Part shown: positions 56,762 to 62,382 of the stretch, one piece after another
How positions within the stretch are numbered: the first letter of the stretch is position 1
How the letters are laid out: every line of letters starts with the position of its first letter
DNA from: Enterobacteria phage phiC600P9
Sequence record: MZ681930.1
DNA: 64,000 nt
Reading direction: 5' to 3' (one strand)
The notes under the pieces: model-generated
What the model was told of the DNA's origin: nothing
Seen by the model: the letters and a program-made list of their open reading frames with translations, nothing else
Databases searched by the model: none
Program-made: the position numbers and the translations under genes

Positions 56762-56979
56762 GTCACCTTTAAGCAGTATTCTTCTACATGCTGTTTACGA
56801 CCTTTCTTATCAATAAAGGTATATTCAACGAATGTTCCAATGTAGTCTTTATCTACGTCATGTGGACTATTAATTGGGCATTTAGTACGGCAAATGCGTT
56901 CCCATTGACGAATAATTACTGCCTTATTCTTTGGGTCATATGGATGTGGATAATGTATATTCATAATAATGGTTCCCAA
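56752..56979 (-). CDS. small hypothetical protein
   Basis: 75-aa ORF. Confidence 0.45.
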   Translation of the reverse strand: MGTIIMNIHYPHPYDPKNKAVIIRQWERICRTKCPINSPHDVDKDYIGTFVEYTFIDKKGRKQHVEEYCLKVTWL

Positions 56980-57428
56980 TCAACAATCACAATTTCTAAT
57001 TTAGAGGAATATGTATCTAAAATCCCCTCAATAATATCCCAGTTCCCTTTACCTATGCCTGCACCAATCCTAGGCATATAGATTGTAGGTTTAATCAGTT
57101 TATTTTCACCAAACTCATTTAATTCTAACATACAATTCATTAAAGCGGAATACTCAAAATTTGGCCCTGGTTGAAATTGAGTATAAAGGTTGAAGCAATA
57201 CGCTTTATGAGTCCTAAAGTATTTTTCATAGACTGAGTAAGAACCGAGTTTAGTTACATCACCCCATTCAGTCTGTAATTTATCAGCTTCCAAAATTTTA
57301 GGGAAAGCTTTGGTTAATTGACCCGCTACTCCTGAACCCATAGTATGAAAACAATTGCATCCATGCGCAATATTTTTACCTTCAGCGAAAAGGGCGACAA
57401 TATCGCCCTTGATATATTTTACAATCAT
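56961..57428 (-). CDS. macro-domain protein (predicted ADP-ribose binding/processing)
   Basis: 155-aa ORF with macro-domain-like motifs (HGCNCFHTMGSGVAGQL, then RIGAGIGKG). Confidence 0.55.
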   Translation of the reverse strand: MIVKYIKGDIVALFAEGKNIAHGCNCFHTMGSGVAGQLTKAFPKILEADKLQTEWGDVTKLGSYSVYEKYFRTHKAYCFNLYTQFQPGPNFEYSALMNCMLELNEFGENKLIKPTIYMPRIGAGIGKGNWDIIEGILDTYSSKLEIVIVDWEPLL

Positions 57429-57772
57429 CTAGTACTCAATCCTCGATTATAAGAATCTACCAAACGGTCAACCATTGAATGACAAGCGGCTTTATCTTTC
57501 TCCTCCGCAACTGAACATTCTAAAGTATTCCACTTTTTAGCATATCGTTTTAATAATGTATCGTTTTTGTATCTGCTTGATTTATCTCTTTCTCCGTCTT
57601 TATATGCATATATTAATTTCTGCGCAAATTCAGCTTGGCATGCTTTATTTTTCCCACAATAATCTGCCGCAGTGCGATTTACATATTCTCTAATTTCAGT
57701 ATATGATGTATCTGCTGACGCAGAAGCAGAAAATGAAATTAATCCTATACATAAAACCAAAATTTTAGTCAT
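57425..57772 (-). CDS. vs: Vs-like protein (T4 valyl-tRNA synthetase modifier position), secreted
   Basis: 115-aa ORF, T4 Vs length, with N-terminal signal peptide. Confidence 0.5.
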   Translation of the reverse strand: MTKILVLCIGLISFSASASADTSYTEIREYVNRTAADYCGKNKACQAEFAQKLIYAYKDGERDKSSRYKNDTLLKRYAKKWNTLECSVAEEKDKAACHSMVDRLVDSYNRGLSTR

Positions 57773-58310
57773 TTACTATTTCCAAAAGTTTATTATTTTT
57801 AAGGTAATTAGCCTTTTCTAGGACTTCAGAAGCATATTTAGAACCAGCTTTAACATTCCATCCCGAATTATAAGAGGATATTGCTTTTCTTATATCGCCC
57901 TTATGTATATTTAACCAATAAGAAAGTTCAATGTACGCCCAGGAAGCTGAATTGGATCGTTTATTCAACATTCTTTTTATTTCAGCATCGGTCATATTAT
58001 AACCAAGTTCCTTAACTCTCGCTCGCATAGTAGGCAAATAATTTTGGAACATTCCGTAGGCGTGATGCTTTGGTTTAGATTTTAAATTAACTCCGGCAGA
58101 GCTTTCTTGCCATAAAATAGCAGCCATTATATGACCTAATCCGCTTTTGTGGATATTTTTATGTGTTTTATATTTTCCATCCTTAGAAAATTGTTCCCCG
58201 AATTGATACGCGTAACGCATGTTATCGAGTTGGACATTACTGAAAGTATGCTCGGAGCTATGTGCCATCATAGAAATGGCCAATAGACCAGCGAGTAGTG
58301 CTTTTCTCAT
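57765..58310 (-). CDS. secreted lytic-transglycosylase-like protein (SLT domain)
   Basis: 181-aa ORF with signal peptide and SLT motifs (ILWQESSAG, YGMFQ, SYNSG). Confidence 0.55.
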   Translation of the reverse strand: MRKALLAGLLAISMMAHSSEHTFSNVQLDNMRYAYQFGEQFSKDGKYKTHKNIHKSGLGHIMAAILWQESSAGVNLKSKPKHHAYGMFQNYLPTMRARVKELGYNMTDAEIKRMLNKRSNSASWAYIELSYWLNIHKGDIRKAISSYNSGWNVKAGSKYASEVLEKANYLKNNKLLEIVND

Positions 58311-58317
58311 GCTTACC

Positions 58318-58779
58318 TCATTGAGTTTTAATTACTGCTTTAGAAGCCTTTCCAGGTAAACGACGACTGTTGATAATTGCCATCCTGCATTGAAGCGACG
58401 GGTCTTTGAACTTCGCATTAGGTTTACAAACTGTAAATCCAAGCCAAAGATTTCCATCTGTGATTTCTAAACGCCCAGGACGATATTCAACCCCATCAAT
58501 AAAATCCTCATCAATGTCAGGACGCGGAGGCATACTCAGGAATTCATTAACTTCTAAAACATGGTCTTTTATTTTATGGAATAATTCAAAAACATATGTC
58601 TCATCAATCTCCCGTTGAATTGCACGATCAAGAAGATGCTGAGAATATTTTAGATGAAACGATGAGACCCCTGCTGCTTTTGATGCCTCACGAATCTCAT
58701 TGTTAATTTGACGAAACTCCGACTCAAAGTGACGACGAAGCTTATTTCGTCGGATAAAAACTTCTGTGTTGATAGTCAT
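58318..58779 (-). CDS. regB: site-specific endoribonuclease RegB
   Basis: 153-aa ORF, T4 RegB length and position. Confidence 0.75.
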   Translation of the reverse strand: MTINTEVFIRRNKLRRHFESEFRQINNEIREASKAAGVSSFHLKYSQHLLDRAIQREIDETYVFELFHKIKDHVLEVNEFLSMPPRPDIDEDFIDGVEYRPGRLEITDGNLWLGFTVCKPNAKFKDPSLQCRMAIINSRRLPGKASKAVIKTQ

Positions 58780-58806
58780 GTTATTCTCCTCTTAACTGAT
58801 AGAAAA

Positions 58807-58836
58807 ATTATACCACAGTCAAGAGGAAAAGTAAAC
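58807..58836 (-). promoter_or_regulatory. early promoter (GTTTAC-N18-TGGTATAAT) for regB
   Basis: plus strand attataccacagtcaagaggaaaagtaaac. Confidence 0.55.
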
Positions 58837-58838
58837 AA

Positions 58839-59159
58839 TTATTCTTTAAATCTAATCAATTTATTCATAGACTTTGAAACTTCTGCACGAACCTCATGTA
58901 GGTTTTTGAGCTGTTCAAGACGCTGCTCATAGTAAGCAATTTCATCTTCTTCGAGACAGTCCTGCGAATCTTCTTTAAGATAACGTGCATAGTCCTGGAA
59001 AGCTTTACGGACTACTTCCTGGAAGTCATCAAGACTTTGAATTTTCTTAGGAGCAACAGATACACGACGAGGGGCAGTATAATACTCATAACCAAACCCT
59101 GCGCTTAATTGAGCCATTAATATTTTTCCTCTGGTTGGAACACAGCACGACAAGCCCAC
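58839..59159 (-). CDS. hypothetical protein
   Basis: 106-aa ORF. Confidence 0.5.
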
Positions 59160-59419
59160 ATACTGGCTTCTTTGAGTTTCGTTTTAGCAATAGTTAACTG
59201 ATCGAGGCTTTCAGCATAATTCTTCGCGAATTCACAGTCTTCACAATTATCTAGTGCTTCCCAAAATTCATCGTATAAAGCATCAAAGATAAGTCCTAAA
59301 CGAACTTCAGCGTCTTTGATAGCATTCACTTTACCGATTTTCTCTTCAGTGTGCGGCTTATAACCCTTAATATCTTCAATCATATTTGACTTCCTCACCA
59401 GTACATAAATCATATTCAA
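59117..59419 (-). CDS. hypothetical protein
   Basis: 100-aa ORF. Confidence 0.5.
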
Positions 59420-59597
59420 CTAAACGAATAGGTTCATGAATGCCATATCCCTGAACAGAAATTTCTGTCGTGGGATAAATTCCATCAATATCGCCCATAT
59501 TCCACGCTTCATTAAATTGCTGTTCGCCTGAATTACTAAACCATTCGGCGAAAGCATTTAGCACATCTTCAGAACCTTCAATAATTATCTTTGCCAT
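59376..59597 (-). CDS. small hypothetical protein
   Basis: 73-aa ORF coupled to the GrcA-like gene. Confidence 0.45.
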   Translation of the reverse strand: MAKIIIEGSEDVLNAFAEWFSNSGEQQFNEAWNMGDIDGIYPTTEISVQGYGIHEPIRLVEYDLCTGEEVKYD

Positions 59598-59971
59598 TAC
59601 AAACTCTCGGTAAAGGTACGAGCGATAACGTCGCGCTGCTGTTCCGGAGTCAGAGAGTTAAAGCGAACTGCATAACCGGATACACGGATGGTCAGCTGCG
59701 GATATTTTTCCGGATGCTTAACTGCATCTTCCAGAGTTTCGCGACGCAGAACGTTAACGTTCAGGTGTTGACCACCTTCAATTTTAACTGTAGGCTGTTG
59801 CTCAATTTCAATTTCACGGGCATGCAAACCATAGAAAATTTCTGGGTCTACAAAAGAGTCCTCTTTAAAGGTTTTAGATACAATAATTCGTGCTTGAATA
59901 CCATCTTCAAAATAAATAGTACCTTTATGTGTGCCTTCAAGAATTTGATATGCTTTCATATAACCTCTCAA
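59597..59971 (-). CDS. autonomous glycyl radical cofactor (GrcA/YfiD-like)
   Basis: 124-aa ORF; C-terminal ~60 aa near-identical to E. coli GrcA including glycyl-radical motif RVSGYAV; this DNA is markedly GC-richer than its surroundings. Confidence 0.85.
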
Positions 59972-60972: not shown

Positions 60973-61446
60973 TTATTTGAACGATTTAACGTACTGAATA
61001 GAACCTTTACTATTCACGAAAGCGATTTTACCATTTTTATTATACATGGTAGCAGTACGCTGATAGCCATAAGTTTGCTTACCAGATTGATAACCAACTA
61101 ATGCAAAATTATCTTCACCCATTTTATTCTGTTTAGCGCGAATGCGTTCATGACCATGTGCCATAAGAACCTTAGCATCACCAGTTGCAATGGATCGACG
61201 AGTTTTTTCATCTTCAACTGTATTAACAAAGTCGTCAAATGAATCAAATTTAGCATGAGATTTATTATACAGTTTTCCATCTACTGCATAATTATATCCC
61301 TGTACATCCATCTCAACTTCTGTACCATCATCCAATACAGCAGTGATTTTCTGTCCTTTTTTAAATTTCAAAAGATCAGTAAAAGATTCAGCAATAATTT
61401 GAGAATTAATAGCTGCTTCAGTAATAAATTCTTGATATGTTTTCAT
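60973..61446 (-). CDS. internal (capsid-packaged) protein with capsid targeting sequence
   Basis: 157-aa ORF beginning MKTYQEFITE, the T4 IP targeting-sequence signature; at the ipII/ipIII locus next to e. Confidence 0.7.
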   Translation of the reverse strand: MKTYQEFITEAAINSQIIAESFTDLLKFKKGQKITAVLDDGTEVEMDVQGYNYAVDGKLYNKSHAKFDSFDDFVNTVEDEKTRRSIATGDAKVLMAHGHERIRAKQNKMGEDNFALVGYQSGKQTYGYQRTATMYNKNGKIAFVNSKGSIQYVKSFK

Positions 61447-61462
61447 GTGTATCCTTTAATTT

Positions 61463-61780
61463 TTATTCTTTAGGGAAGTTTTTAGAATATGCATCATAAA
61501 GCTTATTTCCAATACGGCGGAAAACTCTAGCCGCAAAACGATTTTCTGGGTTTTTAATCATGATTTGCATCATATAAGTACCCGCGTCAGAAAGAGCTTC
61601 TTCATAGTACCCGTTAATTTCTTTAAGAGTCCTACGTTTACCACCAGGACCATCAACAGTGATTTTCCATTTACCTGTAGAAGTGCGACTTGGCGGCTCA
61701 ACTTGTTCAATCCAGATATAACCGCCTTCTACACGTTGTCCTGCAGCAGATTCTGCAATAAATTCTTTATAGGTTTTCAT
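61463..61780 (-). CDS. internal (capsid-packaged) protein with capsid targeting sequence
   Basis: 105-aa ORF beginning MKTYKEFIAE. Confidence 0.7.
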   Translation of the reverse strand: MKTYKEFIAESAAGQRVEGGYIWIEQVEPPSRTSTGKWKITVDGPGGKRRTLKEINGYYEEALSDAGTYMMQIMIKNPENRFAARVFRRIGNKLYDAYSKNFPKE

Positions 61781-61851
61781 GTGTTTCCTTTAAATATTTT
61801 AATTAGTAATTGTGAATATACTATCACAGTTTTAGGAGAAAGTAAACAACT

Positions 61852-62382
<531 letters not shown>

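Follow-up and report, generated by a model that had tools for sequence, protein, structure and literature searches.

Introduction

Among the specialised lytic transglycosylases that serve envelope-spanning machines are EtgA, from the type III secretion system of enteropathogenic and enterohaemorrhagic Escherichia coli, and its relatives IpgF, IagB, VirB1 and P19. EtgA is encoded in a secretion-system locus, and the rod protein EscI both directs it to the assembling machine and activates it (PMC10880428). Here we compare with such enzymes the product of vs.1, a gene on the minus strand (-) of a 64,000-nucleotide stretch of DNA from Enterobacteria phage phiC600P9 (sequence record MZ681930.1), which we call the window and to which all positions refer unless another record is named. 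Like EtgA, Vs.1 is a small single-domain SLT protein with a predicted Sec-type signal, and EtgA is its best sequence match in the Protein Data Bank (PDB); vs.1, however, belongs to a phage early operon. Taking sequence comparisons and a structural model together, we conclude that Vs.1 is probably a soluble, Sec-exported, single-domain GH23 (family 1, SLT-type) lytic transglycosylase.

Such an enzyme would differ from the better-known members of its family in how it is built and how it reaches the cell wall. The host-type family 1 enzymes (Slt70, MltE and MltC of E. coli; MltF, Slt and MltD of Pseudomonas) are outer-membrane lipoproteins or carry large extra domains, whereas Vs.1 is a bare catalytic domain with neither Cys nor lipobox, shares 13-19% identity with them and falls in a phage-only clade. 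Previously described phage transglycosylases, namely the N-terminal domain of T7 gp16, phiKZ gp144 and phi6 P5, are either entry enzymes carried by the virion or endolysins; they are produced late and delivered by ejection or through holins. In contrast, vs.1 has early RNA, encodes its own predicted Sec signal and lies outside lysis and structural modules. In T4, lysozyme e and the tail lysozyme gp5 are, as predicted for Vs.1, phage-encoded enzymes that cut glycan strands in the same infection, but both are GH24 enzymes with a different mechanism. Their routes to the wall differ as well: lysozyme e depends on the holin and gp5 comes with the tail, while Vs.1 would travel by its own signal peptide. 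The gene for lysozyme e lies 3.5 kb from vs.1 in the same window, and an earlier note on this DNA had proposed that the two enzymes are distinct; in agreement with this, we found no significant sequence similarity between Vs.1 and e, the one lysozyme of the pair that the comparison covered.

The resemblance of vs.1 to SLT proteins is already known and has been in print since 2003-2006. Nolan et al. (2006) reported a marginal match to the SLT domain for six out of six vs.1 orthologs that they examined, and referred to PSI-BLAST hits on lysozyme obtained before (PMC1524935). UniRef and several GenBank records likewise use the names 'Transglycosylase SLT domain-containing' or 'lytic transglycosylase', and the present sequence finding re-derives this existing annotation. 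What is added here is a firm confirmation at the level of the fold, the link to EtgA, the invariance of the catalytic residues throughout the family, the restriction of that family to phages and an observation on Vs, the product of the adjoining gene.

SLT motifs and fold of Vs.1

Vs.1 contains every one of the motifs that the earlier note had read in the sequence as ES...GxxQ...YNSG, here E69-S70, G86-M-F-Q89 and Y147-N-S-G150, together with a fourth conserved position, Y159. The GH23/SLT catalytic domain comprises residues 59-172 (57795..58136, -), and a helix (residues 25-38) and a variable hairpin (residues 41-57) that precede it are also part of the fold. The GAA codon at 58104..58106 (-) encodes Glu69, the predicted single catalytic acid/base, within an E-S motif (W-Q-E-S-S). 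In the AlphaFold model Glu69 is placed at the end of helix 59-70, and Vs.1 thus has the catalytic Glu and following Ser of motif I at the C-terminal end of a helix. Motifs II-IV, which were reportedly defined by Blackburn & Clarke in 2001 as G-(L/M/V)-(M/F)-Q, (A/S)-Y-N-x-G and a downstream Tyr, are found in the Vs.1 family too.

These positions are retained among highly divergent proteins. In an alignment of 72 sequences that reaches down to 23% identity, Q27, E69, Y147, G150 and Y159 are invariant, and W67, S70, G73, G86, A125, W132 and S146 are nearly so. Counted position by position, Glu69, Y147, G150 and Y159 occur in 72/72 sequences, G86 in 70/72, S146 in 69/72, W67 and S70 in 67/72 each, N148 in 60/72, F88 in 56/72 and Q89 in 54/72. 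There is no conserved Asp or Glu between E69-S70 and G86 (positions 70-85) in these 72 sequences; goose-type (g-type) lysozymes and EtgA carry an extra Asp in this interval, whereas the Vs.1 family has no conserved equivalent of Asp60 of EtgA. The absence of a second carboxylate favours, but does not prove, the single-carboxylate mechanism of a lytic transglycosylase.

Database comparisons lead to the same family. The Pfam SLT model (PF01464) matches residues 61-154 of Vs.1 with E=4.8e-5 and 23.4 bits against a gathering cut-off of 21.3. We found 77 close homologues, all 119-188 amino acids (aa) long; 32 of them were aligned, and 30 of these 32 match SLT individually at E<0.01, with a best value of 1.3e-7. 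When 1.84 billion representatives were searched with a profile, the family grew to 418 clusters at E<=1e-3, nearly all of them 155-215 aa in length. When the 72-sequence profile was compared with the PDB, EtgA was matched over the entire domain at E=2.9e-6, with W-x-E-S and Y-N-A-G in register, and goose-type lysozymes came next at E=0.02. Glu69 is aligned with the Glu of 'NES' in EtgA and with that of 'RQES' in E. coli Slt70, the latter of which we take to be the catalytic E478.

The structural model places Vs.1 in the same group. The AlphaFold (AF2) model is mostly helical (predicted local distance difference test, pLDDT, 88.4; predicted template modelling score, pTM, 0.83) and has the lysozyme-like, mainly helical fold of GH23. 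When it was compared with the PDB by Foldseek, the best 25 matches were without exception lytic transglycosylases or a GH23 chitinase, among them MltD, MltE, Slt, Slt70, Cj0843 and the Ralstonia GH23 chitinase; they are followed at rank 26 by the T7 core, of which gp16 is a part. GH23 enzymes therefore fill ranks 1-25, and the SLT-type fold on which the earlier note had staked its proposal was recovered. Compared with the SLT and MltE families in particular, Vs.1 scores over the Pfam SLT cut-off, has MltE among its top 25 structural matches and reaches EtgA by profile.

One further protein in the representative library, P0091 (2,679 aa), has 18 separate stretches that match the S-Y-N-A-G ... 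Y-A helix pair at positions 128-166 of the family profile (E=2.7e-37). As judged from these matches, P0091 is probably a repeat protein that resembles the 128-166 helix-turn-helix segment.

A predicted Sec signal peptide

Codons 1-18 of vs.1 (58257..58310, -) encode a predicted Sec signal peptide, MRKALLAGLLAISMMAHS, recognised by its hydrophobicity and the -3/-1 rule. The N-terminus consists of MRK, the segment ALLAGLLAISMMA and AHS/SE (the slash marks the predicted cut), and so offers two positively charged residues, an uncharged core 13 residues long and an A-x-S site; the residues that follow the cut are SEHTF, and the mature protein would begin at Ser19 with the peptide SEHTFSNVQLDNMR. 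A positive n-region, a core within the 10-15-residue range, small residues at -3 and -1 and no lipobox Cys are the features of a substrate of Sec and signal peptidase I (SPase I), and from them we infer that cleavage takes place after residue 18. A lipoprotein identity was considered and rejected because Vs.1 has no Cys at all.

This N-terminal segment keeps its architecture across the 72 relatives, with a sequence that is poorly conserved: a strongly hydrophobic N-terminal 10-mer is present in 65/72, and a Lys or Arg precedes the hydrophobic stretch in 70/72. The signal peptide that the earlier note had proposed thus stands, its n-, h- and c-regions being present by heuristics and signal-like N-termini recurring in the same 65 relatives. 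In the AlphaFold model residues 1-20 are of low confidence (pLDDT 53-54), as are otherwise only the last few C-terminal residues. The mature part of 40/72 relatives has 2 or 4 Cys, typically with one near each end, and such paired Cys fit the expectation for folding in an oxidising periplasm; T4-type Vs.1 proteins contain zero Cys. In many distant members (P0105, P0131, P0146 and P0193 among them) one Cys is found ~20-35 residues into the protein and another 3-12 residues before its C-terminus, sometimes with a second pair, an arrangement that suggests a disulfide stapling the two ends together.

Locus, operon and expression of vs.1

The vs.1 coding sequence (CDS; 57765..58310, -) has 181 codons plus stop and, just as the earlier note had delimited it, coincides exactly with one 181-aa minus-strand open reading frame (ORF), stop codon included. 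It corresponds to CDS QNI20203.1 of record MT630408.1 (genus Tequatrovirus), which is labelled a hypothetical protein, and to PHROG 600 (E=5.6e-69), which carries the label 'unknown function'. Window positions equal those of MT630408.1 minus 1, and the tested stretch is 100% identical between the two. The T4 ortholog is located at 61726..62271 of AF158101, and the T4 and phiC600P9 proteins are identical at 180/181 residues, the sole difference being at residue 72 (A72 versus G72; A72G). Opposite-strand ORFs in the region are <=49 aa, and we found no support for any of them. A foreign origin of vs.1 was rejected, since the DNA around the gene has a base composition that is usual for T4.

The genes run in the order regB, vs.1, vs, tk.4, all on the minus strand. 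Upstream, regB (58318..58779, -; Pfam REGB_T4, E=1.4e-68, and annotation) forms one transcription unit with vs.1, with 7 nucleotides (nt) between its stop codon and the vs.1 ATG. Downstream, vs (57425..57772, -; ORF list and PHROG 1256) overlaps vs.1 by 8 nt, and is in turn overlapped by 4 nt by the translationally coupled tk.4 ortholog, which encodes a macro-domain protein (56961..57428, -; Pfam Macro, E=2.9e-6). The Shine-Dalgarno sequence of vs.1, GAGG (58316..58319, -), stands 5 nt before the ATG and shares nucleotides with TGA, the stop codon of regB (58318..58320). Inspection of the sequence confirmed that this site does not contain GGAG, the target of RegB, which is compatible with ongoing translation of vs.1. 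A GGAG, the RegB cleavage motif, is located within the Shine-Dalgarno sequence of regB itself (58786..58789, -). RegB may therefore treat regB and vs.1 differently despite their adjacency in one operon, and this difference in GGAG content fits the proteomic data for T4, where the regB protein is 'early' and the Vs.1 protein 'middle'.

Upstream of regB is a sigma-70-like promoter, TTTACT-17-TATAAT with a TG extension (58807..58835, -; identified by consensus match only, 10/12), which likely feeds regB-vs.1-vs as an early promoter. Early timing of this unit is supported by the RNA-seq classes of T4, and a minus-strand scan found no MotA-type middle promoter before vs.1. In a time-resolved omics data set on T4 infection, vs.1 (P13311, Y06E_BPT4) belongs to the class 'early RNA, middle protein', and the mass spectrometry intensities of Vs.1 are zero at the first time points and then climb through infection (PMC9697503). 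The same data set gives this pattern for vs and tk.4 as well, and has regB early for both RNA and protein (PMC9697503). The position of vs.1 directly after regB and the early class of its T4 RNA both agree with its placement among early genes in the earlier note. In a genome-wide knock-down screen of T4 by CRISPRi-ART, vs.1 is among only five 'Semi-Fit' genes of purely unknown function, with a mean score of 0.81 and a Kolmogorov-Smirnov p of ~0.10, while the genes regB, vs and tk.4 score as 'Not Fit' (PMC11879866). Neither the CRISPRi-ART paper nor the HIDEN-SEQ paper names vs.1 in its main text.

Distribution and genomic contexts

By tblastn, relatives of vs.1 were detected in 2,084 of 50,697 phage records (~4%) and in 0 of 72,556 plasmids, and a tie to the transglycosylases of plasmids and conjugation was rejected for want of any plasmid match. 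The gene is kept in several families of large virulent myoviruses (T4-like, Vi1-like, Felix O1-like and Vibrio phages); among the tblastn matches are Straboviridae from many hosts, Ackermannviridae (CBA120 orf114, with the annotation Vs.1-like) and Felixounavirus (REP5), and the best matches of a distant family member used as a separate query include large Vibrio, Cobetia and Hafnia myoviruses. In CBA120 the relative is placed after gp46/47-like recombination genes and in REP5 after rIIA/rIIB; these contexts are early or metabolic and are not lysis cassettes.

In four independent T4-like contigs with 40-50% Vs.1 identity, the ValRS_modifier (vs) gene is found immediately 3' of vs.1, and in T4-like contigs of this identity range vs.1 has an antiholin (RI) gene on its downstream side at a distance of 0.3-1.6 kb. 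Two metagenome contigs, L004 and L005, encode an identical Vs.1 homologue (P0077) behind the same upstream genes; L004 is without vs and the next two genes, and there a short opposite-strand ORF comes after vs.1, with the antiholin gene behind it. It is apparent from this indel polymorphism that vs.1 can persist without vs.

Vs and other neighbouring genes

The neighbouring protein Vs, annotated as 'valyl-tRNA synthetase modifier', has a signal-peptide-like N-terminus of its own, MTKILVLCIGLISFSASASA/DT. Its homologues combine a signal-like N-terminus with invariant C39, C45, C86 and C97 in 15/15 cases; further vs loci are located at L005:5520-5849, L007:5552-5863 and L008:4513-4842. Vs was modelled as a four-helix bundle with a disordered N-terminal stretch of 18 residues, and C39/C45 and C86/C97 are situated at or beside the turns between helices 1 and 2 and helices 3 and 4. 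From its sequence and model Vs looks like an exported, disulfide-bonded protein, which would be odd for a factor described as binding a cytoplasmic enzyme. A fold search with Vs returned no informative match, and a literature search on Vs found nothing relevant.

On the other side of vs.1, 0.8 kb upstream, is the ortholog of T4 vs.4 (59117..59383, -; 88 aa), whose match to Pfam Acb2_Tad1_hairpin (E=7e-20) identifies it as an anti-defence gene of the anti-CBASS/Thoeris sponge type. The ortholog of T4 vs.6 (59597..59971, -) encodes a small protein annotated as an autonomous glycyl radical cofactor (GrcA-like; Pfam Gly_radical, E=2.5e-18). Between the vs.8-like gene and lysozyme e (60973..61780, -) the window has a DUF7412 protein of 157 aa and a 105-aa ORF without a Pfam match. 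T4 holds denV, ipII and ipIII in their place, and the vs.8-to-e region therefore differs from that of T4.

Discussion

The exported murein-cleaving enzyme of SLT/GH23 type that the earlier note had predicted is supported by the Pfam match, the fold, the invariance of the motifs, the alignment of the catalytic Glu, the N-termini of the family and the expression of vs.1 in T4. Its nearest characterised counterparts, by architecture as well as by sequence, are the specialised transglycosylases of envelope-spanning machines, but membership among these was rejected on genomic context, which for them is a secretion, conjugation or flagellar cluster: the neighbours of vs.1 are the regB, vs, tk.4 macro-domain, vs.4 Acb2-like and vs.6 Gly-radical genes, none of which points to an envelope-spanning machine. 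Because there is no such machine and there are no plasmid relatives, we regard Vs.1 as an enzyme that would work like this group without being a member of it. The class of endolysins and virion-associated lysins was also rejected, since these are expressed late from lysis cassettes or structural modules, while vs.1 is part of the early regB-tk operon.

We suggest the following course of events in the infected cell. The vs.1 gene would be cotranscribed with regB from the early promoter and translated from its own GAGG site, giving a 181-aa precursor that would be exported and cut by SPase I, most likely after Ala-His-Ser18. This cut would free a basic enzyme of 163 aa (~18.8 kDa, isoelectric point ~9.6) into the periplasm, where Glu69, at the end of the helix ...AAILWQE, would act as the single acid/base in cleaving the beta-1,4 bond from N-acetylmuramic acid to N-acetylglucosamine (MurNAc-beta-1,4-GlcNAc) and making a 1,6-anhydro-MurNAc end. 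T4 e mutants do not lyse; Vs.1 alone therefore cannot dissolve the sacculus, and any activity that it has must be low, local or restrained. As far as can be judged from sequence, its most likely role in the infected cell is an auxiliary one: the host wall would be remodelled or loosened in the latent period, with a modest gain in phage yield or lysis behaviour, and a modest benefit of this kind fits the CRISPRi result. The process that benefits may be lysis efficiency, wall expansion in lysis inhibition or the behaviour towards superinfecting phage, candidates between which sequence cannot decide.

Several observations weigh against a lytic transglycosylase of this description. The Pfam SLT score is only 2 bits over its cut-off, and an NCBIfam search with Vs.1 gave no match. 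Neither the single sequence nor the first profile had a significant match among PDB sequences, EtgA being reached only with the broadened 72-sequence profile, and the hhalign alignment of the family with the Slt70 catalytic domain is short and not significant (motifs I-II only, 30 columns, E=0.11, probability 0.5%), so that it shows motif register only. The Foldseek matches are modest, with E from ~6e-3 and template modelling (TM) scores of 0.42-0.53, and the signal peptide of Vs.1 was called by heuristics only. In the knock-down screen the effect of vs.1 is weak, and polarity is possible because the vs.1 guides are on the regB/vs.1 junction (PMC11879866). The literature that we searched yielded no enzymatic, localisation or knockout work on Vs.1; it gave only the comparative-genomics remark of 2006 and the two omics data sets on T4, of which the weak 'Semi-Fit' score is the sole functional datum. 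Finally, GH23 also holds hydrolytic g-type lysozymes and a chitinase that score nearly as well as the transglycosylases.

Given the last of these points, the product may carry an anhydro or a reducing end, and Vs.1 could instead be a GH23 muramidase, a goose-type-lysozyme-like hydrolase of the same fold and location that uses water as acceptor and leaves reducing MurNAc ends; we hold this to be unlikely. A further departure from a transglycosylase would be a protein that is catalytically dead or very weak and that binds peptidoglycan as a periplasmic lectin, sensor or decoy. T4 without lysozyme e does not lyse, so that any activity of Vs.1 is not overtly lytic, and the knock-down phenotype is weak, both of which would suit such a binder. 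However, the catalytic E69 and the positions that shape the GH23 active site (S70, G86, Y147, G150 and Y159) are invariant or nearly invariant although the relatives are otherwise only 23-35% identical, and as this is the pattern expected of an active enzyme, we give a non-catalytic binder very little credence. It is also conceivable, although we rate it as rather improbable, that the hydrophobic N-terminus stays uncleaved and, as a signal anchor or in the manner of a signal-anchor-release (SAR) segment, keeps Vs.1 attached to the inner membrane on its outer face; the enzyme would then act only on nearby wall or be released later. The T4 antiholin RI uses a segment of this sort, and the cleavage site in Vs.1 was assigned by rule of thumb; yet a 13-residue uncharged core is too short for a stable transmembrane helix, a canonical A-x-S site follows the core, and the architecture is that of a typical signal peptide throughout the family.

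A different alternative concerns the company that Vs.1 keeps and not its activity. Vs.1 might be one half of a periplasmic pair. The other half would be Vs, as an exported four-helix protein with disulfide bonds whose effect would be to restrain, target or activate Vs.1, and the valyl-tRNA synthetase label would then be incomplete or secondary. Pairs of this kind have parallels in T4 Spackle with the gp5 lysozyme and in EscI with EtgA. The 8-nt overlap of vs.1 and vs speaks for translational coupling, their adjacency is kept in the four independent contigs whose Vs.1 proteins show 40-50% identity, each of the 15 Vs homologues has the signal-like N-terminus and four invariant Cys, and the four-helix bundle model has its Cys pairs at or near helix turns. 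In the work on EtgA, regulation is likewise exerted through a partner protein (PMC10880428). Set against this, vs has been lost while vs.1 stays in one contig, vs is absent in other phage families, and vs was scored 'Not Fit' by CRISPRi-ART (PMC11879866), which together leave the pair a slim chance in our estimation. If it does exist, a 50-year-old label, 'valyl-tRNA synthetase modifier', would mask a periplasmic function.

Among virulent phages T4 serves as the reference, and the pathway by which it lyses its host, with holin T, lysozyme e, the spanins and the antiholins RI/RIII, is deemed well understood. As an exported lytic transglycosylase, Vs.1 is predicted to be a third T4 enzyme that cleaves glycan strands, one that is self-exporting and early, and it could yield a compact (~19 kDa) secreted muralytic enzyme for applications. 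More speculatively, and with a small probability in our view, Vs.1 may represent a phage-only clade of early-made, Sec-exported lytic transglycosylases that perform an unrecognised periplasmic step well before lysis, possibly together with Vs in T4-like phages. Were this so, candidates for the step would include a controlled loosening of the sacculus, by which lysis would be timed or lysis inhibition made possible, and a change in the wall directed against superinfecting phage. A defined role for Vs.1 would bring a periplasmic, pre-lysis step into the infection cycle.

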